A program made the translations under genes and the position numbers. Below, piece by piece: positions 8,991 through 55,477 of a DNA stretch of 64,000 bases. Origin of the DNA: Mobula hypostoma (taxonomy: Eukaryota); the NCBI RefSeq assembly GCF_963921235.1, contig NC_086097.1, forward strand, positions 160,892,001 through 160,956,000, given 5' to 3'. Numbering within the stretch: the stretch's first letter is position 1; every line of letters begins with the position of its first letter. Below the pieces are notes generated by a model that searched no databases, was not told the origin of the DNA, and was given only the letters and a program-made list of their open reading frames with translations.

Positions 8991-11027
8991 GGTTGTGTTT
9001 GTCTTTGACGCAGCTCACCCTGATTTCAGCTGTGTATTACATAGGCTGTGATGCACACAATGATCATCATCATCATTTCTGGTAATTTATTGCCTTTTAA
9101 GATATTAGGATATATTCAGATTATGATGTATTTCCTATGGTGCAAGATCACTGTTTTACAAAGTTATAATTTGTTACATACTTTCCTTTGAGTATTGTGC
9201 ATTACTAAGAACATCAAAAAGTGAATATCAAAAAAATAGAGTAAGAGAAAGATAGAACATGGAAAATTACTGTTGGGCCCAGTGAGTCCACCATGACCAT
9301 CAATTACCCATTTATTTACGCAAGTCCCATTTAAAAAAAACACCCCACAGTTTCATTAATCCCCTTTGGATTTAACCGCTCACTACGTACAAGTAGCAAT
9401 TTAGAGTGTCCATTTAAAATATCATCCCTCACCATCAGGACGAAACTGAGGGAAAGCCACTGAGTCACAGTAAGAACATGCAAGCTCTATGCGGCTCGTG
9501 CCCGAGGTCCGGATTGAACTAGGCCTCTGATATTGAGAAGCAGTGGCTTTTCAAGCCGCACCATTGTGCTGCCCAACTATGTGGCTTGGGGGTAAGGATA
9601 ACTAGACTGTAACAGAATGGGACAGTGCAAAAACAGAAATTCATTGCTTAATAAGGATCAAGTAAGAAAAAGTGAAGTGATAAACATGGTCACTAGCACA
9701 AAAATATTTAAAAGTGCAAATCCAGAAGTGCTTGATCCGAATGCTCAAAGCATTTGTAATATGTTAGATGAATGAGCAGAGCAAATAGATGTAAATGAAT
9801 ACAATATCACTGATATTACGGAGAGCAAGAAACAGTCTGCTGGAGGATTGAGCAGCATCTGATATTGTCCGTTACTATTACGGAGATATGGCTGCAATAG
9901 GATAAAGACTGGGAGCTTAACATCAACCAATATCAACCTTTTAGCAATGATAGGCACAAGAAGAAAAGGAGGTAGAATGGAATATGAATTAGTTCAGTTT
10001 GAAAGTAGGGTTTTAAATTTAAACAAATGAAAATATACAAACGGGTAAAAGGATGCAGAATGAGTTGATAATGATGCATTCGGGACGGGGGGGAACATCG
10101 ACTCAGACCATGAGAGGCCTGCGTCAGGCATTTTCATGCCTTACAAGGCGCAGATTGGAAGTCTGTGTGGGGCACTACTAGAGCAATGTGTGATTAAGTG
10201 CCTTGCCACAGCTGAGGCTCGAACTAGCGACCTTGAGGTAACTAGACAAATGCCTTAACCACTTGGCCACATGCCCAACGCATTGGTGAACTTCATTGAA
10301 ACTCATGACTGCTAACAATTAAGGAACAAATAAAGGAACAGCGGTAGTTATACTGATGCAAAAACACAAAAGGAAAAGCAACATAGGTATGATTTACAAA
10401 AGAAGTTCAGGGTAGCATCAGAATCAAAGAAGCTTATAAAATTGCCAGGAACAGCAAGCTTGAGGATTGGGAGCCATTTAGAATCAGCAAAAATGTTGGT
10501 GATACTAAATTTGATTCTGATTATTGCATATAAAATACATATACAGATTTCAAATTAATTAATTGCTACAACTGCAGCTTGTATTGATCTAAAACGTAAT
10601 GAAAAATATTATTCTCAGCATACTAGTATGTAAATGGTGTTAAGTAAGGAGAGATAGCTAGCTAATAACATAGTCAAATAATAACATGTTCAAACAAGAG
10701 GAGTTAACAGGGAATCTGAATTTATCAATATTTAACAGGAAGAAATGATGATTCTTCCAAGATGAGTATAATTAATTCATTGAATATTATACCTATTCAT
10801 TGCTAATATAAAAACCTGTTTCCACACTTTTCCTTTGAACTTAAATGAGGCCTTGAGCAGGTGAATTCCTTTAGACAGAGAATTAACTGCTTTCCCACAG
10901 GACGTAGACTTACATGGTGAGTGGTAGGGCACTGAGGAGAGTGAGGGATCTGGGAATACGATGCATAGTTACTTGAAAGTGCCATCAGAGGTAGATAGGG
11001 TGCTAAAAGAAAAGCAGGACAAAGGCA

Positions 11028-11880
11028 AGAGAAAATCTGCAGATGCTGGAAATCTGAGCAACACACACAAAATGCTGGAGGAACCTAGCAGGCCAGGCAG
11101 CATCTATGGAAAAACGTACAGTCGACGTTTTGGGCAGAAACCCTTCGGCAGGACTGGAGGAAAAAAAGCTGAGGAGTAAATATAAAAGGTGGAGGGAGGG
11201 AAGAAAGAACCAGTAGGTGATAGGTGAAACCTGGTGAAGTGTCACCCATGTTGGGGTCACTTACTGTGTTTGGTGCTCCTGGTGTGAGCTCCTGGACAGC
11301 AGTGACACCTGTCATAGATTGGGAGACCGCTTCGCCGAGCACCTACGCTTCGTTCGCCGGAACAAGCAGGATCTCCCATGGGCCACCCATTTTAATTCCA
11401 CTTTCCATTTCCATTCTAATGTGTCCATCCATTGCCTCCTCCACTGTCGTGATGAGGCCACACTCAGATTGGAGGAACAACAACCTTATATTCCATTTGG
11501 GTAGCCTCCAACCTGGTGGCATGAACTGTGATTTCTCAAACTTCTGGTAATGCCTCCCAAACCTCTTTCTCCATTCCCCATCCCCTTTTCCCTCTCTCAC
11601 CTTATCTGCTTGCCTGCCCATCGCCTTCTCCCACCTTTTCTTTCTTCCATGGTCTTCTGTCTCTTTCACCAATCAACTTCCCAGCTCTTTACTTCATCCC
11701 TCCCTCTTCAGGTTTCACCTATCACCTGGCTTTCTCTCTCCCCTCCCCCCACCTTTTAAATCTACTCCTCAGCTTTTTTTCTCCAGTCCAGCCGAAGGGT
11801 TTTGGCTCAAAATATCGACTGTACTTTTTTCCATAGATGCTACCTGCTCTGCTGAATTCCTCCAGCATTTTTTGTGTTTT
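11028..11880 (+). mobile_element. Penelope-like element remnant with inverted terminal arms
   Basis: GIY-YIG remnant (GDRFAEHLRFVRRNKQDLP) at 11319-11504; 11062-11233 is an inverted copy of 11709-11876. Confidence 0.8.
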
Positions 11881-11884
11881 ATTG

Positions 11885-12880
11885 AATACAGGAGTTGGGA
11901 TATTATGTTGAAGTTGTAGAAGACCATAAGACATATGAGCAGAATTAGGCCAATTAATCCATGGAGTCTACTCTGCCAATTCATCATGCCTGACTTATTA
12001 TCCCTTTTAAACCCATTCTCCTGCCTTCACTCTGTAGCACTTGACGCCCTGTCTAATCAAAAACCTGTCTTCTTTAAATATACCCATTAACTTGGCCTCC
12101 ACAGCCATCCTTGGCAATGAATACCACAGATTCACCACCCTCTGGCTAAAGAAATTCCTTATCTCTGTTCTGAGCGGATATCCCACGATGTTGAGGCTGT
12201 GCCCCCCGTTCCTAGACTCTCCCACTATAGGAAACATCCTCTCCACATACACTCTACCTAGGCCTTTCAGTATTTGATAGCTTTCAATGAGATTCCCCTC
12301 TCATTCTTCTGAATTCCAGCAAGTACAGGCCCAGAGCCATCAAACGCTCACCAATAAGATGTTGGTGAGGCCTAATTTGAAGTATTGTGTGCAGTTTTGG
12401 TCCTATCTGCAGGAAAGATGTCTATAAGATAGAAAGAGTGCAGAGAAATTTTAGGATGATGTCAGGAACTGAGGACCTGAGTTATGTAGAAAGGCTGAAT
12501 ATGTTAGAACTTTTATTCCCTAGACCATAGGAGAATGAGGGAGATTTGATAAAGGTATACAAAATTATGAGGGTAAATGCAAGCTGGTTTCTTCCACTGA
12601 GATTGCGTGAGACCAGAGCTAGATTCTTGAACATGGGTTAAGGATAAAAGGTAAAATGTTTAAAGGGAACATAAGGGGGAATTTTTTTACTCAGTGGGTC
12701 GGTTAGGGTGTGGAACAAGCTTCCAGAGGAAGTGGTGGATGAAGGTTTGTTTTCAACATTTAAGAGAAATTTGGATAGGTACATGGATAAGATGGGTATG
12801 GAGGGCTATGGGCAGGTACATGTCAATGGGACTAGATAGATTTATATTTCAGATGGGCTAAAGGTTCTGTTCCTGTACTA
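11885..12880. mobile_element. Nested CR1 LINE 3' fragments (minus-strand copy about 11925-12350 inside a plus-strand copy)
   Basis: CR1 ORF2 C-terminal motifs (RMFPIVGESR..GHSL, NFFSQRVVNLW; decayed VRP.L.YCVQFW). Confidence 0.75.
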
Positions 12881-14198
12881 TGACTATATAAACCAGCTAT
12901 GTATTTTAAATCACTTCAAAATCTATATTAGTGTCATATGATTCAGGTCATGTCTTACCAATTATTATTAACAATTATATTAGCTTGCTTGATTTTTTAA
13001 ATGAGTAAAGTGCTAAATAATGGTTAAAATATGTCAACCTCTTGGGCAATTCATCTGCAAATTTCACAGAAGTTATCAAAGCATTCCATCTCCAGTTTTA
13101 TTTTTTCCATTCCCTTTGATGAAGATTAATGCAAAATTGGAAGTTCTTGTTCTTAATTATTAAAATAAATCCATGGGAAGATTACTGCAATGAGCAACCA
13201 TTCCGAGTTTTCACAGATGGTAAAACTGAGAAAGTAAGGAGGCATGGGATCCAAGGGACATTGTTTTGTGGATCCAGAACTGGCTTGCCCACAGAAGGCA
13301 AAGAGTGGTTATAGATGGGTCATATTCTGCATGGAGGTTGGTGACCAGTTGTGTGCCTCAGGTATCTATTCTGGGACCCCTATTCTTCGTGATCTTTATA
13401 AGTGGAGGGATGGGTTAGTAATTTTGCTGATGACACAAAGGTTGGGGGTGTTGTGGATAGTGTGGAGGGCCGTCAGAGGTTACAATGGGACAGTGACCAA
13501 TTGGGTTTCCTCCAGGAGGATGAGAGGTGACCTGATAGAGGTGTATAAGATAATGAGAGGCATTCATCATGTGGATAGTCAGAGTCTTTTTCCCAGGGCT
13601 GAAATGGCTAGCCGAGAGGGCATAGGTTTAAGGTGCTTTGAAGTAGGTACAGAGGAGACCTCTGTTTTTTATGCAGAGAGTGGTGAGTGTGTGGAATGGG
13701 CTGCTGGCAGCAGTGGTGGAGGCGGAATCGATAGGGTCTTTTAAGAGACTCCTGGATAGGTACATGGAGCTTAGAAAAATAGAGGGCTATGGGTAAGCCT
13801 AGGTAGTTCTAAGGTAAGGACATGTTCGGCACAGCTTTGTGGGCTGAAGGGCCTGTATTGTGCTGTAGGTTTTCTATGTTTCTATGTAAAAAGGCCATTG
13901 ATATTGCTCACTTCTACTCATAAGTCTGCTTCGTCATTCTAGTTAAATTCTTTCAACATTTCAGTAGCCAACTTACATTTAATGATTTACATGCAAAAAG
14001 TATTTACAAATAACATTTTTCTAATTTATCATGCAAAGATATTTTCAAGAACAACAACTATTTAGGTAGAAATCTCTTTAAACAGATACTTCTTGACTAG
14101 CTAAGTTCATCTATATTCAGATCTGCAGTTTTATTTGTTTAGCTTTGAAGTAGAATTTGTTAACGTGCGGAATCATCTCATTTCTTTCATGGGAGTTA

Positions 14199-14500
14199 GG
14201 GCGCCACAGTAGTGTAGCAGTTAGCGTGATGCTGTTATAGCTCTGGATGTTCTGGAGTTTGGAGTTCAATTTCAAAGCTGTCTGTCTGTAAGGAGTTGGG
14301 ATATTCGCCCTATGACCACGTGGGTTTCCTCCGGGTGCTCCATTTTCATCCCACAGTCCAAAGAACATACCAGTTTGTAGGTTAATTGGTCATTGTGAGT
14401 TGTCTTGTGATTTGGGCTAGAATATGTCCACTGCTGGGCATTGCAGCTCATTGGGATGAAAGGACCTGGTTCTGCGACCTATCTCTAAATAACTAGATAA
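14199..14500 (+). mobile_element. tRNA-derived SINE
   Basis: A-box-like agtagtgtagcagttagc, B-box-like gagttcaatttc, body gtaaggagtt...gggtttcctccgggtgctcc; further copies at about 54025-54305 and 58533-58790. Confidence 0.75.
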
Positions 14501-14703
14501 CACAATTCACAGCAGCAGCCATATTTGAGTGTATACAATCCTCTTTTCCAAGTTCATATGCACCTAAATATCACAATAAGCAATAAATAGCCCATACTTC
14601 TGTCACAGGTAATTTGCATACAAAATACATTTTCCCCATATTTGAGTATAATTTAAGAATGAAGGTACAAATTGGACAAGTTCTGATACTTGCTTTTTAA
14701 AAT

Positions 14704-14709
14704 TTTATT
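14704..14709 (-). terminator. Poly(A) signal of the S2-like gene
   Basis: AATAAA about 40 nt after the stop codon. Confidence 0.7.
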
Positions 14710-14747
14710 TGTATTCAATTGATAATATCTCTGACGCTTGCTGCCGA

Positions 14748-14984
14748 TCACACATTCTTCTTCAAAGATACTTTTTGATTGAGTGTTTCATTAAGGCTCT
14801 TGTTTTTAACTTTTAAAGTATTATCGAGTTCGTTATCTAACTTCTGAATCTTTGGCGGCCTTCGTTTGGGCTGTACATAACGAGGCCTCCGTTGGATTCT
14901 TGTTCTTCTGCCGCTGACTTTTCTTGCTCGTCGTACTTTTGCTAGCCGTTTGCGGGCACGGTTCTGTCTCCTTGACTTGACCAT
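14748..14984 (-). CDS. Spermatid-specific basic protein S2 homologue (78 aa)
   Basis: MVKSRRQNRARKRLAKVRR...KLDNELDNTLKVKNKSLNETLNQKVSLKKNV aligns with the recalled dogfish S2 (VKSRY...KLDNEVDNTLKAKNKSLNEALKNRLSLRKHV). TATATAA at 15058-15064; AATAAA downstream. Confidence 0.9.
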   Translation of the reverse strand: MVKSRRQNRARKRLAKVRRARKVSGRRTRIQRRPRYVQPKRRPPKIQKLDNELDNTLKVKNKSLNETLNQKVSLKKNV

Positions 14985-15057
14985 AGTTTTCTCTTCACTT
15001 CTGCTTTATCAGCAGGTTATTTTTTATCTCTTTACTAAATGGTTATCAGTCTATTAC

Positions 15058-15179
15058 TTATATAGCGTACACTGTGTTGCAACACAATGTAACTTGAAAT
15101 TTGTATTTTATTCTGCATTACCTTATTTGGTATTGATGTGGATATCATGATACACCACAGGTGGTATATCCTTATTAGG
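15058..15179 (-). promoter_or_regulatory. S2 promoter: TATA box and two CArG boxes
   Basis: TATATAA 15058-15064 (minus strand); CCTTATTTGG 15121-15130; CCTTATTAGG 15170-15179. Confidence 0.7.
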
Positions 15180-16329
15180 TATTGTTGTGATTGGCCCTGC
15201 TTGGTCTTGCTGGTTTGCAGTAGGGACCATTGAAGTTTATTATCTTTTATTCCTGTTGCTATACTGTTTGGATTTCAGGGATTTTGTCCTACGTTTGTTC
15301 TTGTGGGTTATGTTCTAACAATTGCAAAGGATAAACGGTTATTGTGCAATCTCACTACATTAAAAAAAATTCATTTCACTGAGATATACATTGATCATAA
15401 AATAAATTCTATATTATCTTGTAAGGAAAGCTTGTCATATTGAGAAATTGAGCAAAAAAATAACATTTTTGTATGACAGTAATAATATAGATCTTCCAGA
15501 TTACAGGGGACTGGCAATAAATATCTAATTTATAGAGGTACATGATTGGTCCTTATCCAAATACCGAGATTGAAAATCATATGCCTTAGTTATACATTTA
15601 TTTTTATAGTGCGAGTTTTCAGTTGGCAACTAATAAAATTAGAGGAATAATGATCATTTGCAGCTGACAGACCAACTATACCAAATATTAATCTCATATG
15701 ATGTGTATTTAATGCTTAAATAATGTTGTAAATATTTTGTTTGATCATATAATTAATTACAGATTATAAGTAATAGTGTGTGAATGGCTTACGTCGTCAT
15801 GCCGCCACATAATACGTCTGTGTGCACCTCACTTAAAGTAAAAATGAAGTTAGATGTGTTATTCCCAGCTCCACTGGTTTTATGCTTTGGAGTTACAAAA
15901 CATAACAGATGAGGCCTCACAAGCAATTTTGTTTGCAGAAATGAGGAAAGATTCTTAACTTATGCTTTTAACACAATGAGAATTTCACAAACATGAGAAA
16001 GTCTACAGTTGCAAGAAATCCAAAGCTACACACACACACAATGTTGAAGGAACTCAGCAGGTCAGGCAGCATCTATGGAAATGAATAAACAGTCAAAGTT
16101 TCACACTGAGATATTCCTTCAGAACTGGAAAGGAAGGGGGAAGATGCCAGAATAAAAAGGTGGGAGGAGGGGAAGGAGGATAGTGAGAAGATGATAGGTG
16201 AAGCCAGTTGGATAGGAAAGGTAAAGGGCTGGAGAGGAAGGACCATAGGAGAAAGGGAAGGAGGAGGTGACTCGGGAGATAAATCAGAATTCGAATCAAA
16301 ATCACGTCTAATATCACCAGCATATGTCT

Positions 16330-18079: not shown

Positions 18080-19860
18080 GGCTTCAGAACAGCACAGACC
18101 CTTCAGCGCATGACCTATTAACTTATGTTGACCTTTTAACCTATTCTAACCTTCTTAATCCCACCCCAGCTCTCCACTTTTCTTTTATCCAGGTACAGTA
18201 CCTGTCTAAGTCTCCTAAATGTCCCTAATTTATTTATCTATGCCACCACCTCTGGCTGCGCTTTCCAAGCACCTACCATTGTGTAGAAATCTCTACCTCC
18301 GACTTCCCCCCATACTTTCCTCCATATGATATCTCCTTGTATTAGATACTTTTGACCAGGGAAATTGTCTCTGACTGTCCATTCTAGCTCTGCCTCTTAG
18401 CATCTTATACACTCTATCACGTCACGTCTCGTCCTCTATAGCTTGCTCTATTTATCTATACCCATGAAGCATGCTCTCTAATCTAGGCAGCATCCTGGTA
18501 AATCTCCTCTGCACCCTCTCTAAAGCTTCCACATCATTCCTATAATGGGGTGATCAGAACTGAACAGAATACTCCAAGTGTGGCCTAACCAGAGTTTTAT
18601 AGAACTGCAACGTTATGTCATGGCTCTTAAACTTATCCATCCTATCAACTTGTGCAGGAACTTTGAGGGATCTATGGACATGGACCCCAAGATCCTTCCG
18701 TGCCTCCACATTGCAAAGAATTCTAACATTAACCTTGTATATAGCCTTCAAATTCTAAAATGAATCACTTTACACCTCCACTTTGAACCTCAGCTGCCAC
18801 TTCTCAGGCTACCTCTGCATTCTATCAATGTTCTGTTATAGCCTACAACAAACTTCTATGCTATCCACAACACCACCAACCTTCATGTCATCTACAAACT
18901 TACTAACCCACCTTCCACTTTCTCATCTAAGTCATTTATAAACAAAAACAAAGAACAGGGGTCTCTGAAAAGATCCCTGACGAACGCCACTACTCACTGG
19001 CCTCCAGGCAAAACATGTTCCATCTATTATCACTTTCTGCCTTCTGTGGGCAAGTCCATGCAGTCAACTTTCTTTAGATCCCATATTTATTGGCTTTCTG
19101 AATGAGCCTGCTATGGGGAATTTACTAAGGTCCACATTCACTACACACCACTTCCTCATGGAACTCATTCATACTCGTCAGGCATGGCCTGCACCTTACA
19201 AAGCTATGCGAACTATCAATAATCAGACTAAGCTTCTCCAAATGCTCATAAATCCTCTCTAAGAATCTATGAATCCTCCAATAGTTTGCCTACCACTGAT
19301 GTAATTGACTACTGACCATTTACTACTCTGTACTTCACAAGATTATCTCCATTATCTTTCCTGAGCAAAAGAATAACATTTGCTGCCCTCCAATCGAATG
19401 ATTCTACTCCTGTGGTAGTGAGGATGCAAAGATCATTGCTAAATATACTGCAATTTCTTCTCTTGTTTCCAGTCTAGTCTCGGAGACTTACAGTATCTAT
19501 CTTAATGTTTTTTCAGAAATTCAAACACATTCTTTTGCTCAATGTTGACACGTTCCAGCATGTTAGCCTGTCTACGCTGTCCTAACTTTCATTAAGTTCC
19601 CTCTCACTGGGGAAAACTTAAGCAAGTTAAGAACCTCCCCAGCTCCTCCAACTCCAGGCATGTTTTTTCTTTCATCCCTGATCAATTCTACCCTCACATT
19701 AGTCATCTTCTGGTTCTTCTCGCACATATAGAAAGCTTTGTGGTTTTCCTTAATCCTACTTGCCAAGACCTTCTCATATTCCCTTCTGGTTCTCCAAAAT
19801 CCATTCTTCAGCTTTATGGCTCTTTGCTGCTTTTTAAAGTTTCCCTAATCTTCAAGTTTC
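18080..19860 (-). mobile_element. Decayed CR1 LINE
   Basis: DLGVHVHRSLKV and KTLVRPHLEYSVQF motifs; many stops. Confidence 0.75.
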
Positions 19861-20954
19861 CCACTACTCTGTGTTGCTTTGTAGACATGAATTTTAATAA
19901 TAATATCTTACTTATAGAACACCTTTCATACAGATGATGTAGTTCAAAGTGTTTTACAATGGAATAAAGTACGAACATAGAATAAAAGATAAAAGTCTTG
20001 GACTATATTTTTTGTGTGACTGACTGTTGGTATTGTGTTTTGCACCTTGGCCACAGAGTAAAACTGGAATTCATGTACGGTTGAATGACAAGTAAATTTG
20101 AACTTGAAAAAAGATGTTAATTAAAAGCCAGGTTAAATAAATAGTTTTAAAATGGCATTTAAAAGTGTCAGTGTATAGTTTTAGGTGTGAAATTCCACAG
20201 TTCAAAAGAGCTGACTTGCCAATTATCTTTAGAGGGAGCTTGTTTGAATTTAAGAGACTGATGGAAGAAGAGCTGTGAGATTGAGCAGGATTATAAAACA
20301 AAAGCAATGCAAGAATGTACACAGGCCTCAGACTATTGAGAACTTTAAATCCAAGTAAGAGAACTTTAAAATCAATTCTAAAAGATGCAGGAAACCAATG
20401 GAGTAACTACGATGGGAGTGATATGCCCTCTCATCCTGGTTTTAGTTGAAATTCTAGCAGCAGTATTCTGAATGAGTTTGTCAATAGATTGCTTTGGAAG
20501 GCCAGTAAAAAGCGCATTGCAAGTTATCTCGTCTATTCCATATGAAGGTGTGAATTAATTTTTCAGCATCATTATGTGACAGAAATAGACACAACTTTGC
20601 AATATTTTAGTTTGATTTTAGCTTGACGTCTTCTTTTATTTCTTTGGCTTTCCCCACCCTTACAGCTCCTGCTTTAGACTGGAATATACTTTTGTTGGGA
20701 ACCATGAAAAATCACTTTAAAAGTCTTCCACTATTCTTTAACTGTCCCAAAATATTGCCTGTGTCCTCAGTGTACACTAGCAGCTCCTCCCTCATCCCAA
20801 TGTAGTCTATCATAAACATGAGAAAGTCTGCAAATGCTGGAAATCCCAACGTAACACACAGAAAATGCTGGAGGAACTCAGCAGGTCAGGCATCATCTAT
20901 GGAAATGAATAAACAGTCAACGTTTCAGGCTGAGACCCTTCTTCCTAACTGAAA

Positions 20955-25675: not shown

Positions 25676-25942
25676 TCAGACAGGCACCCTCATGGGCATT
25701 CTATGCTGCTTAAGCGATTCATTAAGACGTCTGTTGTTCTTTACTTTCAAATTTTCAATTTCATCTCGGAGTCTGCTGCGGCGTTTTTGATGCACACTCT
25801 TCCGTACCTTTCTCCTGTAGGAGGCATGACGAGGTCTGCGGCTGACTCGCCGCCCTCTCCTTCGACCCTTTGATTTACGCAGCCGCCTACCATATCGGTT
25901 ACGTGGTCGGCTGCGTCTGGTACGATATCGTGACTTGGTCAT
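25676..25942 (-). CDS. Spermatid-specific basic protein S1 homologue (88 aa)
   Basis: MTKSRYRTRRSRPRNRYGRR...RDEIENLKVKNNRRLNESLKQHRMPMRVPV is nearly colinear with the recalled dogfish S1 (TKSRYRNRRSRPRRRYGRR...NLKVKNNRRLNESLKQHRLPMRVPV). Confidence 0.93.
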   Translation of the reverse strand: MTKSRYRTRRSRPRNRYGRRLRKSKGRRRGRRVSRRPRHASYRRKVRKSVHQKRRSRLRDEIENLKVKNNRRLNESLKQHRMPMRVPV

Positions 25943-26023: not shown

Positions 26024-26310
26024 TTTTAATGCCTGCAAGCACCATTGTTGAGTGACATAATCATACCATGTTTGGTCTGAAGCCATATTTTGTATTCATA
26101 GAGATGTAAATGGCACCTTATAAGGTGAATACACTGATACATTGATCATATCATTTTATTGGTGAGTTTGATCAATACACAATGGATTTCAGTGTCTTTA
26201 TACCAATGTCATGCCATATATGGACAAAATTTGTAATGCCTTTGGTGAGTGATGTAATCGTACCATGTAGGGTCTGAAGAACCATATTTTGTATTCATCA
26301 AGATGTAAAT
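26024..26310 (-). promoter_or_regulatory. S1 promoter: TATA-like ATTAAAA, CArG boxes, duplicated CRE-like block
   Basis: ATTAAAA 26024-26030 (minus); CCTTATAAGG 26116-26125; CCATATATGG 26214-26223; direct repeat of about 63 bp at 26049-26111 and 26246-26310. Confidence 0.65.
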
Positions 26311-27792
26311 ATCTTAGTACCATAAGATAAATAAAATAAAACATAGAAACATAGAAAACCTACAGCACAATACAGGCCTTTTGGCCCACAAAGCTGTGCC
26401 AAACATGTCCTTACCTGAGACATTAACTAGGGTTACCCAAAGCCCTCTATTTTTTTGAGCTCCATAAACCTGTCCAGGAGTCTCTTAAAAGACCCTATCA
26501 GATTCGTCTCCACCACCGTCGCTGGCAGCCCATTCCACACACTCACCAATCTCTGCGTAAAAAACTTTCCCCTGATATCTCCTCTGTACCTACTTCCAAG
26601 CACCTTAAAACTGTGCCCTCTCATGCTAGCCATTTCAGCCCTGGGAAAAAATTGTTTAAAACAAGTTAACACTGTTTTTGAAGAAACTGGCAATGTATTA
26701 ATTTTGCTCTGGAAAAACTCAATATTCCTTGACACCTGTCAGCCTTTTGTGAGTCCATTATTTCACAGTTAAATGACTCCCACTTGTCTGATGTAGGCCT
26801 GTCTCTTCCAGCTTACTTTTACCAGGAGATAAAAAGAGACTGTAGATGGTAGAATCTGGGGTAAAAAGCCAACTTCTAGATGAACTCAGTGGGTCAGGTG
26901 GAGGGAAAAGAACAATCGAGACCCTTCACCTGGACTGAAAGAGCAAAGGGGGATAGTCATTATAAAGTGGCGATGGGAAGGAGTAGGGAAAAAGAGCTGG
27001 CGACTGACAGCGGGATTCAAGTGAAGAAGGATGATAAGCAGGGAAATGTAAAGGGTACCCATGCGTCGGACAAGGATTTGTTTTGCCCTTCTGTCCTCAG
27101 AATGCTTATTACACTGTTTCACCTGGATCCACCTGTCACCTGCCAGCTCTTGTTTCACCCCTTCCCCTCACCTCACTGGCTATGTCCCCTTACACTTTCA
27201 ATCCAGGTGACAGATTTCCACCTGAAATATCAACTGTCTGTTTCCCTCCTCGGATGCTGCCTGACACACTGATTTCCTCTAGCAATTTTTTTATTATACT
27301 TATACCAGATCTTACTTTATTTCAAAATCAGCATTCCCTCAATCCAGGAACTGGGCCATGCATATCCCTTTCCATAACTACCTTTAAATGTATGCTCACT
27401 ATTCAACTAGCTAGTCATCCACTTTCATGTCTACATTCCCTAAAATTAGGTCTATTATCTACTATCTTAAGTCTACTATCTACACACCAGCTCAGAAATC
27501 TCTCCTGCTTGCAGCTGTCAAACTACAGTAATCCTTGTTAATACTGGGGAAGTTGAAATTCCCTGCTGCTATATTTCTATTGTTGGCACACCTCTGTGAC
27601 TTGTCCGCATATCTGCTGTCACTTTGCCCGACTGCTAGAAGGCACGTAATCATCCCCTTTTTGCTGCTAAGTTCTACCCACACGGCCTCATTTCAGTTGT
27701 AAATGACAGTGCCACATTCTCTTTTATGTGCCCCCATTATCAGGCCTGGAGATTCTATAACATGGAATGCTGAGCTATTATGATTATGAATA

Positions 27793-42240: not shown

Positions 42241-42381
42241 TTCAATTTGAATCAGTGAACATGGTGTGAAGAACGAAGTTTCAATTCAAGCAGTTTCCTC
42301 ATCCAGTCTGCCTTGTGCACATCTTCTTTAGTACTCGAATAGCTCAAAACATGGTTCTTTTCTTTGATCTGTCATAGCTTC

Positions 42382-42513
42382 TTACCGATGACAACGTCTT
42401 GAAGCTCTTCGCCGATGAACAAGATGTGCTCTGACAATAGTACTTGATTTTCGTTTGCAAGGTTTCTTGCCATTTCTACGCCTGCGCCTGCGTTTGCGCA
42501 CACACCTCTTCAT
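42382..42513 (-). CDS. Cysteine-containing protamine Z2 (scylliorhinine Z2) homologue, 43 aa (MKRCVRKRRRRRRNGKKPCKRKSSTIVRAHLVHRRRASRRCHR)
   Basis: Translated by hand. SSTIVRAHLVHRR core and the Arg run match the recalled dogfish Z2; TATAAAA at 42561-42567. Confidence 0.92.
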   Translation of the reverse strand: MKRCVRKRRRRRRNGKKPCKRKSSTIVRAHLVHRRRASRRCHR

Positions 42514-42560
42514 GCTTCAGCCTTCAGCCACTGACCGCTTTGGAAGTGTTCAGTCTCTAG

Positions 42561-42800
42561 TTTTATAGACTTTTCAGCATCCTGCCCTATTGTCATGTCA
42601 TCATGATTTTACAGGTTTCAGCTACTTTCCATATTTGGCACTTTGTCGCAAATTTTTTTGGACTGTGTATGTTCAACATATAATTGCCTATTAAGGTATT
42701 TTTTTCCCAAACTGCCTTTTAAGGTATTTGTCTATATTTGGCACTTGGGCCGTTGTTTTGGGATTGTATATGTTTAGCAGATAACTGATTTTAAGGTATT
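42561..42800 (-). promoter_or_regulatory. Z2 promoter: TATA box, TGAC half-sites, three CArG boxes
   Basis: TATAAAA 42561-42567; TGATGACATGACA 42591-42603 (minus); CCATATTTGG 42629-42638; CCTATTAAGG 42687-42696; CCTTTTAAGG 42715-42724. Confidence 0.72.
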
Positions 42801-43817
42801 TCATGCAAAGCTACTTCTATTCAGATCACGATTATCCTGGAACACAACAATGGGTTAAAACTTACAAAGGGTTCCCATGTATATATTCTCACCAGTGAAA
42901 TGTTGAACACAATCAAATTTGTGTCCTATCTGCCAGGGCTGATTGGATTTAATTTAACTTGATAATTCTAAATTTTCCGAGAGACAATTGAGCTTTCCCA
43001 CAACATACCTTTCACTCAAAGTAAAGAACCTCTGTCCCTCTTAAGTTTAAATCAAAGTCTTTGGAAGCTTCTCTTTGCTCTGTTGGTACCTGTCTGGTCT
43101 CTCCAAACAATTGCTTGTACAATTTGATCATGAATTTCTCTGGATTATCATATAGTATAACACTATATATGGTTCAGCAAAATCCTGTTGGCCAGCTTTA
43201 GTGTTTTCTACATTTAAGCTAAACTATTTGAAGTCAATGCATGAAACATTTGTTTCCATCCAATGGAGAGTATTTTTTAGGTATTAAAATTTCAACTCTG
43301 CTATTCTCAGTCAATATTATTGAAGTAGGTGTCAAAGTACAAAGCAAGTCACTAAGGTGTTACTTCAATATGGCCTGGCAACATTTATCCAGTTGTTCTA
43401 TTCAGCCAAGTTCAGGAATGGCACCAAGTCTCCTTGAGTGAAGAACCAAGAGTTAGATTATTCTCCACAACTTTCAGCGTGAATATCCATTGCTAATGTG
43501 TGTGATGCTAGCAGCATAGTGAGTGCAGTTGGAAATCTAGGACCAAATGGTGAATGATTGTATCAGTTAAAGAAATAGGGTCAATTGTTTTTTTGCCATT
43601 TATCCCATGACTGGCCTGCATTTATTGCCCTTGAACTGAATGGCTAGCTGGGCTTTTTTATGGGGGCATGCACTGTAAATATGAGTTATTAAAGATTTCA
43701 CATAAAGGCTTGTCCAGAGAAAGATGGCAAATTTCCTTTGCTAAAGCACATTAGCACTAATAAGAACAGCAATTCAAAAAAATGACATCAAACTAGTTAA
43801 TTTTACCTGAATTTCAA

Positions 43818-43934
43818 TCACTCAGCTCTTCGCCGATGAACAAGATGTGCTCTGACAATAGTACTTGATTTTCGTTTGCAAGGTTTCTTGCCATTTCTAC
43901 GCCTGCGCCTGCGTTTGCGCACACACCTCTTCAT
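43818..43934 (-). pseudogene. 3'-truncated Z2 duplicate, 38 aa (...VHRRRAE*)
   Basis: 43824-44028 equals 42403-42607 with one mismatch in 205 bp; the stop codon comes from flanking DNA; CArG boxes and the 3' UTR are missing. Confidence 0.8.
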
Positions 43935-45949
43935 GCTTCAGCCTTCAGCCACTGACCGCTTTGGAAGTGTTCAGTCTCTAGTTTTATAGACTTTCCAGCA
44001 TCCTGCCCTATTGTCATGTCATCATGATGGTCATGTAGGAGTTCAAAGTAAACTTATTATCAAAGTACATACATGTTACCATATACTACTACCTTAAGAT
44101 TCATTTTCTTGCTGGCATTTATAGGAATAAAATGAATACTGTTGAATTTACTGAAAATTATACATAAACAGTTAAAAACTGACAAATAACCAACGTGCAA
44201 AAGAAATCAAACGGTGCAAAACAACCTAATGCTGAGAGCAAGAGTTCCAGAATCCTTGAAAGCGAGTCAGCAAGAAGGTTCTAGAATCCGTTCAAAGTAG
44301 TGGTTGCTGAAGTTATCCATGTCGGTTCAAGAGCCTGATTGTTGTAGGATATTAACTGTATCTGAACCTCAATGTCAAAGTAAAATTTATTATCAAAGTA
44401 CGTATATATATTACCAAATACTATCTTAAGATCCATTTTTTTGCAGGCATTTACAGGAAAATAAAGAAATACAACAGAATTTATGAAAAAATATTCATAA
44501 ATGTACACTGACAAACAAACAATGTGCTAAAGATAATGATTTGTGTAAATAAGAAATAATACTGAGAACATGAGCTGTAAAGAGTTCTTGAAGAGTTTGT
44601 GTGTAGAATCAGTTCATAGTTATGGTGCACAGATGAAGTTATTCACGCTGATTCAGGAGCCTGGTAGTTGTAGGGTAATTGTTCCTGAACCTGGTGGTGT
44701 GTGCTCTGTCACTGCATCGCTGCTGGGTTGCTAATGAGTCCATATGCACAATCCCTGTACCATTGATTGGAGAAGTTAAGTTTCACCAAGAGAAAAAAAA
44801 GTTGTAATAAAGGAGAGAGCAAAGAAGACAAAAGAAGAGTAAGAATAATATAAAGCTTTTAAATATGATTTATTAACTGCTGGACCAAGATACCATAGTT
44901 TCATTTGTTCTGTTTCTGAACTGGAACTAATGGCTAGCACTGAAGGAACATGCAATCAAGGGGATACTGGCCCTGTTAAATACCAACCCTATCTTTCTGC
45001 AAATTCAGCAATTTCTTGTGCAAAAGTCACAAGGCAGGTTAATTTATGGAGATATGAACATCATAAAAGTATTTCTTTCTAATCATAAGTGGCTAGGTCA
45101 TTCCAGACATATCTTTACAGCTTAAATCTGTTATTTTCTCAGCAAATTCTATGTATTTGTGTCATTATTTCAGAGCTGCTGTCCTGAAATCAATCAATAA
45201 CATAAAGTAAAAACAATAAGGATCACAGCAACATTCCCAGAAAACAGCACAATTATTCTACTCCATTATTATAATTCCTTTTTTTTTTTCACCAATGACT
45301 GCATTGGTGCTGCTTCCTGCACCCATGCTGAACTCGTTGACTTCATCCACTTTGCCTCCAATTTCCATCCTGCCCTCAAATTTACCTGGGAAAGAGGGAG
45401 AAGAGGGGAGCAGTAGTGATAGGGGACTCGACAGTCAGAGAAACAGACAGAAGATTCTGTGGATGTGAATGGGACACCCAGATGGTATGTTGCTTCCCAT
45501 GTACCACGGTCAGGGACATCTTGATCATGTCCACAGCATTTTGGAGAGGGAGAGAGAGCAGCCAGATGTCTTGGTACAGATTGGTACCAATGACATAGGA
45601 AGGAAAAGCAAAGAGGGCCTGAAAAGAGAATTCAGAGAACTTGGCAAAAAACCAAGAAGCAGGACCTCAAGGGTACTAATTTCTGGATTGCTGCCTATTC
45701 CATACGCCAGTAAGGGTAGAAACAGGATGAATTGGCAGATAAATGTGTGGCAGTGAAACTGGTGCAGGGGGCAGGGCTTCAAGTTCTTGGGTGATTGGGA
45801 TCTCTTCTAGGGGGGAATGACCTGTACAAAAGTGACACCTGGGAGCAATATTCTCATGGACAGCTTAGTTAGGACTCTTGGGAAGGGTTTAAACTAATTT
45901 GGCCAGGGGCTAGGAACTGGAGTGAAGGGACTCAGGATAGGACACTGAA

Positions 45950-48420: not shown

Positions 48421-49209
48421 AGATTTAAACACTCTAATTCTCCAGAATACAGATAGCTGGCATGGCCTCTTTAAGGGCTTAGGACATTCCCATTAATCGA
48501 TAATCATGTGTTAGGCGCCAAGAATTGGGTACTTAAGGAAAACATGAGCATAAGTTCTGTGCTCAATAGTAAGCCTACTAGTGATATCGTCCAGCATTTC
48601 TTTTGTGCTCTGATCCAGTTTGATAACATGTCTCAAATCTAGCTTCGGATACCCCAGCATTTGGTTTCAAACCATCTTCATCAAGGACTCTCGTCAATGG
48701 ACTGTAATGTATGGATCTATTTCTTTTAGACCAATGACTTTCCCCCTTAGCACTACATACTAATATGTTGTCTGCGCATGCGCTGATGTCTATGCATGCA
48801 CATTGTTCTCTCCCTCTCTCACTCTCTCCTGGCAACTTTTGTGCATTTAAAAGCACCAAAGCTCCAACAATTCCTGTCTCACCATATTAATGTCATACAG
48901 TGATTTACATTCCTATGATTCTGAATCGTCCCCCTGTTTTGTAGGCATTTACAAAATTTCATCCTATGCTGCATCTCTATTCATAGATTGATCTGAAACC
49001 CAGATTCTTGTTTATTTTTTCAGCACAATCTCTTCTGAAAGCCACCTATTTCCAAATTTAAATGTGATTGTGGCCCTTTCCACATCAACTGGTGCTGCTG
49101 CAGAAATTCAACCAGATGCCAAGTTGGTGGCTTTCAGTGGTGACTCTTTGCATTCAACTCCGAAGAAAATCATCAGATATTCCCATTTAGGACTACAGCT
49201 GAATGCAGA

Positions 49210-52200
49210 GTCGCAGTCAGGGGTACTTCAAAGTTCATATAGGAGCTGGTTGTGGATTGTGGGAGGAATGGAGACAGGCTAACCTCTATTGATACCAATG
49301 GATCTGGGGTTGAGAGGGCGAACAGCTTTAAGTTCCTCAACATCCACATCACCAAGGATCTCACGTGGTCTGTGCACACCAGCTGTGTGGTGAAAAAGGC
49401 ACAACAGCGCCTCTTTCACTTCAGACGGTGGTGGAAGTTTGGTATGGGCCCCCGAATGCTAAGAACTTTCTACAGGGGCAAAATTGAGAGCATCCTGGCT
49501 GGCTGCATCACTGCCTGGTATGAGAACTGAACCTCCCTGAATCGCAGGATTCTGCAGAGAGTGGTGCGGACAGCCCAGCGCATCTGTAGTTGTAAACTTC
49601 CCATGATTCAGGACATTTACAAAGACAGGTGTGTAAAAAGGGCCGGAAGGATCATTGGGGACTGGAGTCACCCCAATCACAATCTATTCCAGCGGCTACC
49701 ATCTGGGAAACGGTACTGCAGTATAAAAGCCAGGACCAACAGGCTCCAGGCCAGCTTCTTCCACCAGGCCATCAGACTGATAAACTCCTGCTAATTTGAG
49801 TGTACTCTATATTACATTGACTGTTCTATTTATTATAAATTACTATGATTGCACGTTGCACATTTAGATGAAGATTTTTACTCCTCATATCTGTGAAGGA
49901 TGTAAGAAATAAGGTCAGTTCAATATGTCACCATATACAACCATGAGATTCATTTTCTTGTGCACATACTCAATAGATCCAATAACCATAATAGAATCAA
50001 TGAAAGATCACACCCAACTGGGCAAACAACCAGTGTGCAAAGGACAACACACTGTATAAATACAAAAAAAGAAATAATAATAATAAACAAATAAGCAATA
50101 AATACCGAGAGCATGAGATGAAGAGTCCTCGAAGGTGAGTACATAAGTTGTGGGAACATTTCTGTGATGGGCCATTAAGTTGAGTGAAGTTATCCCCTTC
50201 GATTCAAGAGCCTGATAGTTGAGGGGTAGTTGTTCTTGAACCTGGTGGTGCGAGTCCTGAGGTTTCTGTACCTTCTTCCTGATGGCAGCAGTGAGAAGAG
50301 AGCCTGAATTGGGTGGTAGAGGTTGCTGATGATGAATGGTGCTTTCCTGCAATAATGGCCTGTATAGATGTGTTCACTGGTTGGGAGGGATTTAACTGTG
50401 ATGGACTGGACCGTATCCACTACATTTTGGTAGGATTTTCTGTTCAAGGACATTGGTGTTTCCATACCAACCTGTGACGCAGTCAGTCAATATATTCTTC
50501 ACCACACATCTATAAACGTTTGTCAAAGTTTTGGATGTCACGCTGAATCTTTGCAAATGCCTCGGGAAGTAGAGGTGCTGCTGTGTTGTCTTTGCTGTAC
50601 TTCTGTGCTGGGCCTAGGACAGGTCCTCTGAAATGATAACACCGAGGAATTTAAAGGTGCTGATCATCTCCACCTCATTGGCTCATGGACCTCTAGTTTC
50701 CTCCTCTTGAAGTCAATAATCAGCTCTTTGATCTTGCTGACATTGAGGAAGAGGTTTTTGTTATGGCACCACTCAGCCAGATTTTCAGTCTTCCTCATAT
50801 GCTGATTCATCACCACCTTTGATTCAGCCTACGACACCAATGTCATCAACAAACTTGATAGTGGTGTATTTCCATCTCAGGCCAATGTCAGACAGGCACT
50901 GGAGGCGTTGAACACCATGATCAGCAGTCTTGAAACGAATTCTGATATCTTCCTTGTCTTTGCAGGTTTTCAACTAGGCCAGCGTGAAGAAGTCTCTGTC
51001 GACTACCATCGACATATCCCCTGTGGAACCAGAGGAGCCAACAAACTTGTCTACTGTTATGCCACCATCAACAATGCTCACCATACCATCCCATACCTGC
51101 ACTTTGTAAAGTCTGATCACCTGGCTATGCTTCTACTGTCTCCATATAGGCAGAGACTAACACCATAGAACCAGTGGTGAAGACCAAGAACGTATGGTCA
51201 AGGGAGGCAAAGGAGCATTTATAGGATTGCTTTGAATTGGTGGGCTGTACTATATACAGGGATTCATCTTTTGATCTGATTGAAAACACCCCACTTTTCA
51301 CCAACTTCATCAACACCTGTATGGATGAGTGTGTGCCTTCGATAACATACCGGGCATACCCAAATCTAAAGCCATGGATGAACTAGGAGATTCGTAGTCT
51401 GCTGCGGGCTGTATCTGTGACATTAAGACTGCTGATAGAGAACTATACAAGAAATCCAGGTACACCCTACGGAAGGCTATCTTAAGAGCAAAAAAACAAT
51501 TCTGATTGCAGTTAGAGGTGGAATTGGATGCATGTTGGCTCTGGCAGGGTTTGCAGGTTATTACTTCCTACAAGGCAAAACCTTGATGCTTCACTTCCAT
51601 ATGAGCTAAATGACTTTTATGCATGCTTTGAAAGGGAGTAAACCTGTGTTTACACCTGTGTAAATCCCTGTCACATCTGATGACCCTGTAATCTCTGTCT
51701 CGACATTATAATTTCTTTCATGAGAAATAACCCTTCTAAGTCATCAGGCCCTGATGGTGGAGCTGGTAGGGCATTGAAAACCTGTGACAACCAACTGGTG
51801 GGAGATTTTCAAGGACATCTCTCACTGCTGTAGTTGGAGGTTTCCACCTACTTCAAAAAGGTGACGATCATGGCATCGCCCAAGACGAGCAGGATGATCT
51901 GCCTCAACACTTATCACCCACATCTACTGTGCTGAAGTGCTTTGAGGGGTTGGTCATGGCTAGGATCAACTCCTGCCTTAAATAAGGACATGGAGCCTCT
52001 GCAATTTGCCTATTGCCACTATAGGTCCACTGCAGATGCAACCTCATTGGTTCTCCACTTGGCATTGGATCACCTGCTGTTTATTGATTACAGCTCAGAG
52101 TTCAACACCAGCATACCCTCAGTACAAATTAAAAAGTTCCAAAACCTGGGCCTCTGTACCTCCCTTTGCAACTGGATCCTTGATCATTTCATCAGAAGAC

Positions 52201-53135
52201 CACAGAAATGCAAATTGGAAATAACATCTCCTCCTCACTGACAGTCAACGTGGGCATAGCTCAAGGATGCGTGCTTTCCCCATCTGCTCTACTCTCTACA
52301 CCCGCAACTGGGCACAGATCAAATGCAGATGACACAAATATTGTTGGCAGAATTCCAAATGGTGATCAGGAGGTATCTAGGAGAAGGATTGATCAACTGG
52401 TTGAGTAGTGTCGAAACAACAACCTTGCACTCAACATTGGTAAGATTGTGGACCTGATTGATTGTAGATTTCCGGAAGTAGAAGTCACGGGAACACACTG
52501 CAGTCCTCATCGAGGTTTCAGCAGTGTAAAGGGTGAGCAGTTTCAAGTTCCTGCGTGTCAGTATCTCTGAAGATCTGTCCTGGGCCCAAAATATTGATTC
52601 AATTACAAAGAAGGCACGACAGTGCCGATACTTCATTAGGGGTTTGAAGAGACTTGGTATGTCACAAAAGACTCTCACATGGACTCTCAGATGTACCATG
52701 GAGAGCATCTAACTGGTTGCATCATTATCTGTTCCAAAGGGGCCACTGCACAGGATCGGAAAAAGCTGCAAACAGCTGTAAACTCAGCCATTTCCAACAT
52801 GGGCAGCAGACTCCCCAGTATTGAGGACATCTTCAAAAGGTGATGCCTCAAAAAGGTGGCATCCATCATTAAGGACCCCCATCACCCAGGACATGCCCTC
52901 TTCTCATTGCTCCCATCAAGAAGGAGACACAGGAACCTGCAGACATACACTCAATGTCTTAGAAACAGTTTCTTCTCCACCGCCATCAGATTTCTGAATG
53001 GAAAATCAATCCATGTACACTACCTCACTATTTATTTTTTGCTCTTTTTGCACTACTTGCTTAATTTATTTTATATATTTTTATTGTATTTTATAGATTT
53101 TTATTATGTATTGTAATTTATCTGATTCTGATTCT
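49210..53135. mobile_element. Cluster of Rex1/Babar-like LINE fragments in both orientations
   Basis: VERANSFKFL, KKAQQRLFHFRR, IDYSSEFNT and HPGHALFSLLPS motifs. Confidence 0.8.
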
Positions 53136-53173
53136 GAAACCTTAAAGTAAATTTATTATCAAAGTCTATATAT

Positions 53174-53906
53174 CAGGGGTCCCCAACCTTCTTTGCAGCG
53201 CGGACTGGTTTAATAATGACAATATTCTTGCAGACCGGCCGACCGGTGGGGGGAGGTATATTCAAGTAGGGTTAAACTCACCTCAACATGTCTTTTACAG
53301 TAAGGGTTGCCAATTTTCTCATCCCCAAATAAGCGACAAAACTAGCAGTCCTGGGACACTTTACCCCAGGAAAGACTACCATGACCATGCAAGCCTTGCG
53401 CGGGCACGTGTGCGCATGCGTGCTGATTTTTTTCCACAAATCGGTTTTGCCTTTATCTTCCCGACTACACTGCACATACATTATTTCTACTTTATATAGG
53501 CTGTGTATTTATCATATCATTCCTGCTTTCACTATATGTTAGTGCTATTTTCAGTTTTATGTGTTAGTTGGTATGATTTGGTAGGTTACTTTTTGGGTCT
53601 GGGAACGCTCAAAAATTTTTCCCATATAAATTAATGGTAATTGCTTCTTCACTTCACACCATCTTGGCACAAAAGGTTTCATAGGAACGCTCTACCCTAG
53701 CGGGGGAAATACGGGACAAGGGCAGTCCCATATGGGACAAACCAATTTAACCCAATATATGGGATGTCCCAACAAATACAGGACTGTTGGCAACCCTATG
53801 TTCAAGTTCAATAGTGCGTGACAGGGAATGAGGAAAGGTGCAGCTGACTCATATCATTCCCCCGTGGCCTGGTACCGGTCCGCAGCCCGGTGGTTGGGAA
53901 CCGCTG
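53174..53906. mobile_element. hAT-type non-autonomous element with an internal second TIR pair
   Basis: TIRs caggggtccccaacc / ggttgggaaccgctg; 8-bp TSD ctatatat at 53166-53173 and 53907-53914; internal agggttgccaa (53303) and ttggcaaccct (53787). Confidence 0.88.
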
Positions 53907-54967
53907 CTATATATGATACCATATACTACCCAGGATTCATTTCCTTATGGGCATTCACAGTAGATACAAGGAAATACAATAGAATCAAGAAAAACAAAGA
54001 CAGATAAACAACCAATGTGCAACGGGGTGGTGTGGTAGCTTAGTGGTTAGCACTATGCTTTTCAGTACAGATTACCTGGGTTTAATTCCCACCACAGCCT
54101 GTAAGGAGTTTGTATGTTCTCCCTGTGACTGCATGGGTTTCTGCTGGGTCCTCTAGTTTCCTCCCACAGTCCAAAGGCGTACCGATTGGTAAGTTCTTTG
54201 GCCATTGTAAACTGTCCTGTGATTAGGCGAGGATTAAATCGGGGAATTGCTGGATGGCGTGGTTCGTAGGGCCATGAGGGCATATTCCATGCTATTTCTC
54301 AATTTAAAACAACAGAAAACAAACTGTGCAAACACATAAATAAAGAACAGATAATATTAAGACATGAGTTGTGGAGTCCTTGATAGTGAGTCCATAAGTG
54401 TGGAATCAGTTCAGTGTTGAGGTGAGTGTGGTTATCCACATTGCTTCAGGAGCCTGCTGGTTGAGGGGCAATAACTGTTCCTGAACCTGGTAGCATTGGA
54501 TGTAAGGCTCCTGTACCTTTTTCTTAATGGCAGCAGAGAGAAAAGACCGTGGATGGTGGGGGCCCTTGCTGGTGGATGCTACTTTCTTGTGGCAGTGCTA
54601 CTTGTAGTTGTATTAAATGGTGGGAGGGCTTTTCCTGTGATGGAATGGACTGTATCCACTACTTTTTATAGGTTTTTCCATTCATGGGCATTGGCCTTCC
54701 CATAGCAAGCTGTGACAGAACCTGTCATGATAGTCCACACTGTGCCTCAGCAGAAGTTTTTTAAAGTTTTAGATGTAAATTTGAATTTGTGCTAACTTCT
54801 AAAAAAAATAGAGGCACTGCCGTGCCTTCTTTGTAGTGACTCTTACGTGCTAGTCCTAGGACAAATACCCTGAAATGATAACACTAAGGAATTTTAAAGT
54901 TACTGATCCTCTCCAACTCAGTTCAGTACATTAGAGTCAAGGTACACAATAGTTATTTGATTTGAAT

Positions 54968-54973
54968 TTTATT
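54968..54973 (-). terminator. Poly(A) signal of the Z1-like gene
   Basis: AATAAA about 130 nt after the stop codon. Confidence 0.65.
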
Positions 54974-55102
54974 CAAAATGACTTCAGTGTAAGAAGCAGC
55001 AGGAGTATTGAATTCAGGGAGTACTTCATCACAAACAGTGAATGTTTCTTAAGAAAACTCATTAGGAATGGTTCTTGTTGGATGAAGACTGACAAGCAAT
55101 TC

Positions 55103-55267
55103 TTAACATCTTCTTCTCCCTCTTCTTCTTCTTTTTGGCAATCTTCTAATGTGGCATCTTCTTCGATATATTTTAGACCTGTCCCTCTTAGTTAGACATA
55201 ATCGTCGTAAGTGCCGCCTCCGTAAATAACAAGTTTCTGTCTTCTTAACTGGCTTAGAGCGCTTCAT
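55103..55267 (-). CDS. Cysteine-containing protamine Z1 (scylliorhinine Z1) homologue, 54 aa ([54 protein letters not shown])
   Basis: Translated by hand. [11 protein letters not shown]...KRD-x-SK-x-YRRR-x-H-x-RRLPK...C matches the recalled dogfish Z1. Confidence 0.92.
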
Positions 55268-55322
55268 TACTGTGTCTCATCCACCTTACTTTTGACTCTT
55301 AAATCCCAGCGTCTTGTCTTTG

Positions 55323-55477
55323 TTTAAATATATTTAATAACTTTCACAGCTTAAATATATGAGGTATCCATTATGATGTAATAGATTTTTGTGACCATTC
55401 GTGCCTTGTAAGGCCTTGACAACATGATGTATTCAGCTTCAATTGCAATGTAGAGGTGATATCGCTACCTTATAAGG
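55323..55477 (-). promoter_or_regulatory. Z1 promoter: TATA-like, CRE-like and CArG elements
   Basis: TATTTAAA 55323-55330 (minus); TGATGTAAT 55374-55382; CCTTGTAAGG 55404-55413 (one mismatch); CCTTATAAGG 55468-55477. Confidence 0.65.

Follow-up and report, generated by a model that had tools for sequence, protein, structure and literature searches.

How the genes of a sperm basic protein cluster might be switched on together is the question raised by a 64-kb stretch of Mobula hypostoma DNA (hereafter the window, meaning the whole stretch analysed), which holds a cluster of small, strongly basic open reading frames (ORFs) that lack introns and all lie on the minus strand. Judged from the sequence, and with a probability that we put at about 0.55, four sperm basic protein-type genes of the cluster (labelled S2, S1, Z2, and Z1) share an upstream CC(A/T)6GG element, the CArG box, to which serum response factor (SRF) likely binds and which likely helps to switch the four genes on jointly in developing sperm cells. 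The CArG box is a 10-bp sequence of this form, and the co-factors of SRF are TCF and MRTF (PMC7925694). What the promoters share is a real element of a known kind in a setting that we have not found described, and as the element itself is known the interest lies in its setting and in the strength of the signal. The perfect and near-perfect sites upstream of the four genes, and of a further ORF of the cluster termed the new gene, are as follows (coordinates are those of the window; no strand is assigned):

9093-9102: the new gene's one CArG-like site, with an end base mismatched
15121-15130: S2 proximal perfect CArG box, sense CCAAATAAGG, within a 20-nt unit
15170-15179: S2 distal perfect CArG box, sense CCTAATAAGG
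26066-26075: S1 proximal one-mismatch CArG box, central G on the plus strand; another end-mismatch site lies at 26083
26116-26125: S1 perfect palindromic CArG box, CCTTATAAGG
26214-26223: S1 distal perfect CArG box, CCATATATGG
42629-42638: Z2 proximal perfect CArG box, sense CCAAATATGG
42687-42696: Z2 middle perfect CArG box, sense CCTTAATAGG
42715-42724: Z2 distal perfect CArG box, sense CCTTAAAAGG
42732-42741: Z2 end-mismatch CArG-like site, in a 16-nt unit repeating that at 42628
55404-55413: Z1 proximal one-mismatch CArG box, CCTTGTAAGG, central G
55468-55477: Z1 distal perfect palindromic CArG box, CCTTATAAGG

A first-pass annotation of the window had reported perfect boxes starting at 15121, 15170, 26116, 26214, 42629, 42687, 42715, and 55468, and all eight were found, 116-272 nt upstream of the ATGs; its one-mismatch sites at 9093, 26066, and 55404 are likewise present exactly where it had placed them. 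The minus-strand ATGs concerned lie at 8990 (new gene), 14984 (S2), 25942 (S1), 42513 (Z2), and 55267 (Z1). By sequence the boxes have the 10-bp consensus, exactly six A/T, the CC/GG ends, the proximal position and the multiple copies of CArG boxes. Two further perfect boxes, at 18539 and 56441, were found outside the cluster promoters in the whole-window count.

Strong enrichment had also been claimed, and it is found in the location of the boxes, far above chance, and not in their total number. With a promoter taken as the 300 nt upstream of the ATG, a span picked after reading the earlier finding, eight of the 10 perfect boxes fall inside six such upstream regions, which make up 2.8% of the window (binomial P=1.7e-11). 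The total of 10 is ordinary: shuffles gave 7.25 on average, and 18 in 100 of them had 10 or more. The background is nearer one box per 9 kb than the one per 13 kb or so that had been assumed. In dinucleotide shuffles of five promoters the mean number of boxes was 0.15 and the maximum 4, and none of 10,000 shuffles reached at least five boxes or four genes with a box. Among control ORFs, an upstream box was present in 4 of 253, one of these four being inside S1. One-mismatch sites number 85 in the window, with six in the six upstream regions where 2.4 are expected (P=0.03), and because they are this common a lone one, such as that at 9093, is weak evidence; the region of the 9093 site is 85% identical over 26 nt to Z2 42713-42738 (E 0.048).

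When 7,616 spaced-dinucleotide patterns were scanned, with P set to 1 for patterns having fewer than four promoter hits, CC-W6-GG (W standing for A or T) ranked first with a P of 4e-12, the runner-up reaching 9e-8. The spacer controls W4, W5, W7, and W8 and five swapped-end patterns had no promoter hits each. An unbiased one-site-per-promoter motif search recovered the CArG box from each of the five promoters, in the new gene as the 9093 site, and the recovered motif beat 40 of 40 shuffles at both widths, 10 and 12. Local repeats are present among the boxes: the 20-nt unit around the S2 boxes recurs 49 nt away at 90% identity, the Z2 boxes 42687 and 42715 lie in a 20-nt unit recurring at 28 nt (90% identical), and Z2 box 42629 has a degenerate partner 103 nt away. 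When the eight boxes were collapsed to six and taken together with the two outside boxes, and six windows of 300 nt were drawn at random 200,000 times, in no draw did four or more of the windows hold a box. All eight promoter boxes, and neither of the two outside ones, fit CCWTAWWWGG on one strand, a form that resembles the preferred site of SRF; it fits 44% of possible cores, and the chance of this for six independent sites is 0.007, the form having been defined post hoc. A T stands two bases outside the CC in 12 of 16 half-sites (9 of 12 after collapse, P=0.003, post hoc and with several positions tried).

Every intact gene has a TATA-like element and an AATAAA, and the boxes are best described relative to the former, three of which are:

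15057-15064, minus strand: S2 TATA-like element, TATATAAG, -80 from the ATG, predicted from sequence
26024-26031, minus strand: S1 non-canonical TATA-like element, CATTAAAA, -89, predicted from sequence
42560-42567, minus strand: Z2 TATA box, TATAAAAC, -54

In each intact gene the start of the proximal box is between -125 and -146 relative to the ATG, the distance up from the TATA-like element being 44-74 nt. A partner box lies further upstream by 49 (S2), 50 (S1), 58 (Z2), and 64 nt (Z1), so that perfect or one-mismatch pairs are formed. S2 and Z2 have a perfect proximal box, and that of S1 and of Z1 carries one central mismatch. The S1 promoter also contains a 70-nt block, 26042-26111, that is duplicated about 198 nt upstream at 26239-26310 with 85% identity, the upstream copy adjoining a repeat that starts at 26341.

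Other readings of the promoters were tried with the consensus motifs for Ets, MEF2 (CTA(A/T)4TAR), YY1, and the cAMP response element (CRE), and were rejected. For a c-fos-type ternary complex with TCF/Ets, a weak Ets-like word was found within 30 nt of one of the eight boxes, and 6 of 271 Ets words fall in promoters, which is no enrichment. For MEF2, a type II MADS factor, none of six window matches is in a promoter; the YY1 core has 4 of 62 matches in promoters and is not enriched (P=0.10); and for the canonical CRE there is no TGACGTCA in the window, with 1 of 38 copies of the half-site TGACG in promoters. In S2, S1, Z2, and Z1, degenerate CRE-like words do occur in the interval that separates the proximal box from the TATA-like element. 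After masking of the boxes a second shared promoter motif was not significant, its score being reached by 5 of 30 and 8 of 30 shuffles, and TTACAT, one of 23 patterns tried, is mildly enriched in promoters (5 of 48, P=0.011). A transposon origin of the perfect boxes was rejected as well: none of them lies in an interval repeated in the window, and one to three contigs per run from the relatives considered below matched the Z2 promoter. Upstream of Z1 an inverted pair of about 90 nt with 84% identity (55663-55752 and 56531-56616) flanks the non-promoter box at 56441 and may be a small transposon remnant.

The genes that carry these promoters, and a partial copy of one of them, are:

8823-8990, minus strand: new gene ORF, 55 amino acids, Lys-rich, ATG at 8990; a shortened S-family paralogue
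14748-14984, minus strand: S2-like ORF, 78 amino acids, 37% Arg+Lys, intronless; stop followed by AATAAA after 39 nt
25676-25942, minus strand: S1 ORF, 88 amino acids; orthologue-level match to dogfish spermatid-specific protein S1
42382-42513, minus strand: Z2-labelled protamine-like ORF, 43 amino acids, 51% Arg+Lys, Cys present; stop followed by AATAAA after 142 nt
43824-44028, minus strand: partial Z2 duplicate with a 38-amino acid ORF, ATG at 43934; most of the Z2 ORF, the 5' untranslated region and the TATA box
55103-55267, minus strand: Z1-labelled protamine-like ORF, 54 amino acids, 50% Arg+Lys, Cys present; stop followed by AATAAA after 130 nt

In a homology search S1 matched SSS1_SCYCA of Scyliorhinus canicula with an E of 1.6e-31, and the two are 82% identical in the alignment; two Callorhinchus proteins are 65% and 59% identical to S1 by the same measure. 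S2 aligns to the S1 of the window at 43% identity, with a C-terminal block common to both, and by sequence homology to SSS1_SCYCA S1 and S2 are assigned to the chondrichthyan spermatid-specific S proteins. Homology searches with Z2 and Z1, both short and low-complexity queries, returned no database homologue, and the sole lead is a weak one from Z1 to Protamine_P1 (score 0.80). The labels Z1 and Z2, for putative scylliorhinine protamines, come from the first-pass annotation and have no database support; protamine-like is used here for their composition, about 50% Arg+Lys with Cys. None of the five cluster proteins reached the cut-off for a Pfam family, a PDB search with S1 gave no match, and a metagenome scan with S1 gave 599 pattern matches of which none was confirmed.

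The new gene has a poor TATA element, and it has ATTAAA where S1 has AATAAA. Its DNA aligns with that of S1 through the 3' untranslated region (score 50, where the highest of 300 shuffles was 47), its alignment with S2 DNA is not above shuffles, and a search at the protein level for a remnant of the S C-terminus behind its stop was significant in none of six comparisons. Beside the cluster, at 58944-59294 on the plus strand, an ankyrin-repeat-like frame has matches in Drosophila NompC (5VKQ, E 2e-4) and in a DARPin, which suggests an exon of a TRPN1-like gene.

The extent to which the boxes are shared by descent has to be considered. With the boxes masked, a better alignment than in shuffles was obtained for one promoter pair out of 10, S2-S1 (P=0.034); the masked promoters being mostly unalignable, the boxes persist in DNA that otherwise cannot be aligned, and their lasting in such diverged promoters would be better explained by selection than by drift. 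The first-pass annotation had implied that the protamine and S-type genes are unrelated, their coding sequences not being alignable, and this holds less well than claimed, as a 23-nt stretch at the 3' end of S1 recurs in that of Z2 with 96% identity (0 of 1,000 shuffles). Just after the AATAAA of S2, S1, and Z2 there is also a 5-bp inverted repeat, CAAGT...ACTTG with a 6-7 nt loop (plus strand 14677, 25617, and 42213); three of the four copies of this stem in the window are at these genes, the fourth being at 20089. The stem and the 23-nt identity may reflect either a 3'-processing element that these genes have in common or descent from one ancestor. It is conceivable from these sequences that S-type and Z2-type gene units share ancestry despite their unlike proteins, and given the 3' element of S1 and Z2, common descent may explain part of the sharing of boxes. 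No perfect box is present at either damaged copy, i.e., the Z2 duplicate and the new gene with its one end-mismatched site. The Z2 duplicate consists of 205 nt that are 99.5% identical to 42403-42607 and may owe their presence to very recent duplication or to faulty assembly; it keeps the TATA, lacks the Z2 3' end and stops short of the CArG boxes, with no perfect box and one end-mismatch site (44116) in the 300 nt upstream. It is without boxes because the duplication breakpoint precedes them, and not by decay.

A comparison with relatives was made for the Z2 promoter only, and with a single promoter and about 5% divergence it has little statistical power. A search with the S1 region gave 20 sequencing runs with partial matches, none of them recorded as RNA, and four DNA-type runs, from four other organisms, were compared at Z2 42520-42900 (381 nt). 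Three of them (X9, X10, and X13) span the boxes, each with 19-20 listed differences from the window, and the fourth (X12) spans 42522-42609 only, not the boxes. As X9 and X10 share nearly all differences, the three covering runs amount to about two lineages. Footprinting of this kind had been proposed as a check in the first-pass annotation, and its outcome is divided: one box is intact in all three relatives, while the other two are mismatched in at least two of the three and conservation does not rise above that of the flanks. The intact box, 42687, lies inside the longest invariant run (35 nt, 42663-42697). Box 42629 has T42634C (central C) in X9 and X10 and is unchanged in X13, and box 42715 has T42719G (central G) in all three, i.e., one mismatch in the relatives. 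Every Z2 box in the three relatives keeps its CC/GG ends with at most one mismatch, and each relative has at least one perfect box. Both changes belong to the G5/C6 central class that is also seen in 26066 and 55404; this coincidence has a chance of 0.004 when counted narrowly and of 0.07 if A/T exchanges count as tolerated, for a class defined post hoc. The end-mismatch site 42732 is unchanged in all three, and the flanking A at 42698 is altered in two. The Z2 TATA has no substitution in the four runs and 42595-42607 is also substitution-free. In all three covering runs the Z2 TATA region is separated from the proximal box by 7 additional bases (window 42622-42629), which the Mobula genome probably lost, and the spacing of box to TATA is thus not fixed.

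Several explanations other than a shared SRF element deserve consideration. That the word simply arises in A/T-rich promoters would agree with the ordinary window total, with promoters of 34-37% GC and with a span chosen post hoc, but chance is rejected by the composition-preserving shuffles, the 7,616-pattern scan, the spacer controls and the unbiased motif search; it is refuted within the window and we regard it as scarcely credible. The boxes could instead be inherited relics of little present function, spread from one ancestral unit by gene duplication and short tandem duplications. The local repeats do cover the S2 and Z2 boxes, S1, S2, and the new gene are paralogous, S1 and Z2 have their 3' element in common, and the Z2 box positions are as variable as their flanks. 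Against this, the remaining promoter DNA is unalignable and S1 is conserved out to chimaera, so that the duplications probably date far back, and four promoters would not be expected to have retained neutral 10-mers; the lack of a perfect box at the two damaged copies also argues against relics, although for the Z2 copy it is the breakpoint effect described above. A relic origin is on balance very unlikely.

The two explanations that leave the boxes functional turn on what binds them and what the binding does. A reader other than SRF, e.g., CBF-A/hnRNP A/B, is suggested by a protein that is named for CArG binding, is nuclear up to the round-spermatid stage in mouse and controls translation of Prm2 mRNA (PMC3798277), and the T preference of the flanks would leave room for it. 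The action of CBF-A described in that paper is on RNA, however, and the word 'promoter' is absent from its text (PMC3798277). The strict palindromic CC-W6-GG geometry suits a MADS dimer, MEF2-type sites are missing from the promoters and the YY1-type core is not enriched in them, and the altered A at 42698 in two of three relatives also speaks against another reader; we hold one to be decidedly unlikely, and SRF is the likeliest reader of the boxes. SRF might, on the other hand, bind without being the switch, by keeping the promoters open or tuning them or as a somatic repressor, with the stage set by a bZIP (CREM-like) or other factor placed between the proximal box and the TATA. That SRF is ubiquitous (PMC7925694) favors this, as do the CRE-like words between box and TATA in all four genes, the substitution-free stretch 42595-42607 of Z2, and the mild enrichment of TTACAT. 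Yet the window has no canonical CRE, no second shared motif rises above shuffles, and no element other than the CArG box was shown to recur in every promoter, which makes such an arrangement unlikely too.

If the boxes do form a shared SRF element, SRF dimers would occupy the paired boxes upstream of the TATA-like element, together with an MRTF-type or germ-cell co-factor, an Ets/TCF partner being disfavored because no good Ets site lies beside the boxes. Bound SRF and its co-factor would then raise transcription from the TATA in spermatids, with sign, cell type and function all proposed here. The module would have been inherited when the gene units were duplicated and then, probably, kept or renewed by short local duplications while the promoters diverged. 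Of the earlier proposal that a common SRF-type switch drives the cluster, a shared and non-random CArG-type element in four promoters stands, and its form fits SRF, while the driving of the cluster is something that we infer.

There are several points that weigh against an SRF element of this kind. The eight boxes are about six independent sites. Positions within the Z2 boxes vary no less than others among the relatives (2 of 30 against 23 of 333, Fisher P=1.0), the unchanged state of the 12 CC/GG end bases has a chance of P=0.42, and of the three Z2 boxes that are perfect in the window, two carry a mismatch in two or more of the three relatives; 42715 does so in every one of them and may therefore have become perfect recently. 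This absence of excess conservation is the chief finding against the strong form of the earlier proposal. A link of SRF to spermatid genes was not found in the literature, nor were CArG boxes at cartilaginous-fish sperm protein genes, in a search for which older work in subscription journals was mostly outside scope. SRF is widely expressed and therefore cannot alone explain spermatid specificity (PMC7925694). In the MYH4 promoter one central mismatch lowers activity with part of the function left, and CArG boxes are 'probably not exclusively' bound by SRF (both PMC4255089).

Four promoters with near-textbook paired boxes make the question of SRF in spermatids directly testable. The known targets of SRF are mainly muscle, cytoskeletal and immediate-early genes, and the control of spermatid genes is usually put down to CRE/CREM and related factors; the testis of cartilaginous fish is cystic and zonate, so that stages can be dissected apart. 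Binding by SRF would give a new regulator for spermiogenesis, and binding by some other protein a germ-cell reader of CArG boxes. It is tempting to speculate, though unlikely, that in cartilaginous fish the histone-to-protamine programme is coordinated chiefly by SRF through pairs of CArG boxes and that the CArG-type element of the mammalian PRM1 promoter is a remnant of the same circuit. If so, that circuit would be ancestral to the jawed vertebrates and would have connected actin/MRTF-type signalling with the packaging of sperm chromatin.

Among known systems, the closest likeness at the protein level is to dogfish SSS1_SCYCA, as given above for S1. In the promoters the muscle and cytoskeletal CArG boxes (Acta2, MYH4) resemble those found here in having the identical word, several copies, and perfect as well as singly mismatched members. 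A perfect or singly mismatched box is present at almost 70% of SRF peaks, with several boxes at many of them, and MRTF-linked peaks match the box better than TCF-linked ones (PMC4018493). The sites bound by SRF in Acta2 include CCAAACAAGG, a central C/G variant (PMC4524680), and the proximal MYH4 box is at -74 from the TATA (PMC4255089), the proximal boxes of the cluster likewise being tens of bases upstream of theirs. The predicted targets here differ from muscle and cytoskeletal ones in being sperm basic protein genes. A c-fos-type ternary serum response element has the CArG core in common with the cluster and differs by an adjacent Ets site for SRF plus TCF, no good example of which is present here. 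The mammalian Prm and Tnp spermatid promoters are CRE/CREM-driven. Their genes are similar in being small, clustered, TATA-containing and coding for spermatid basic proteins, whereas the promoters of the cluster have no canonical CRE but only degenerate CRE-like words that are not significant as a shared motif. The original papers on the rat and mammalian P1 promoters are reportedly those of Queralt and Oliva. The human PRM1 promoter contains a serum response element near -190 with a DNase I footprint in vitro (PMC4607923), and it is thus like the cluster in having a CArG-type element in a protamine promoter; it differs in that there is one element at one gene, with a binder that goes unnamed in the passage concerned, where the Mobula cluster has paired boxes at four genes of two protein classes.

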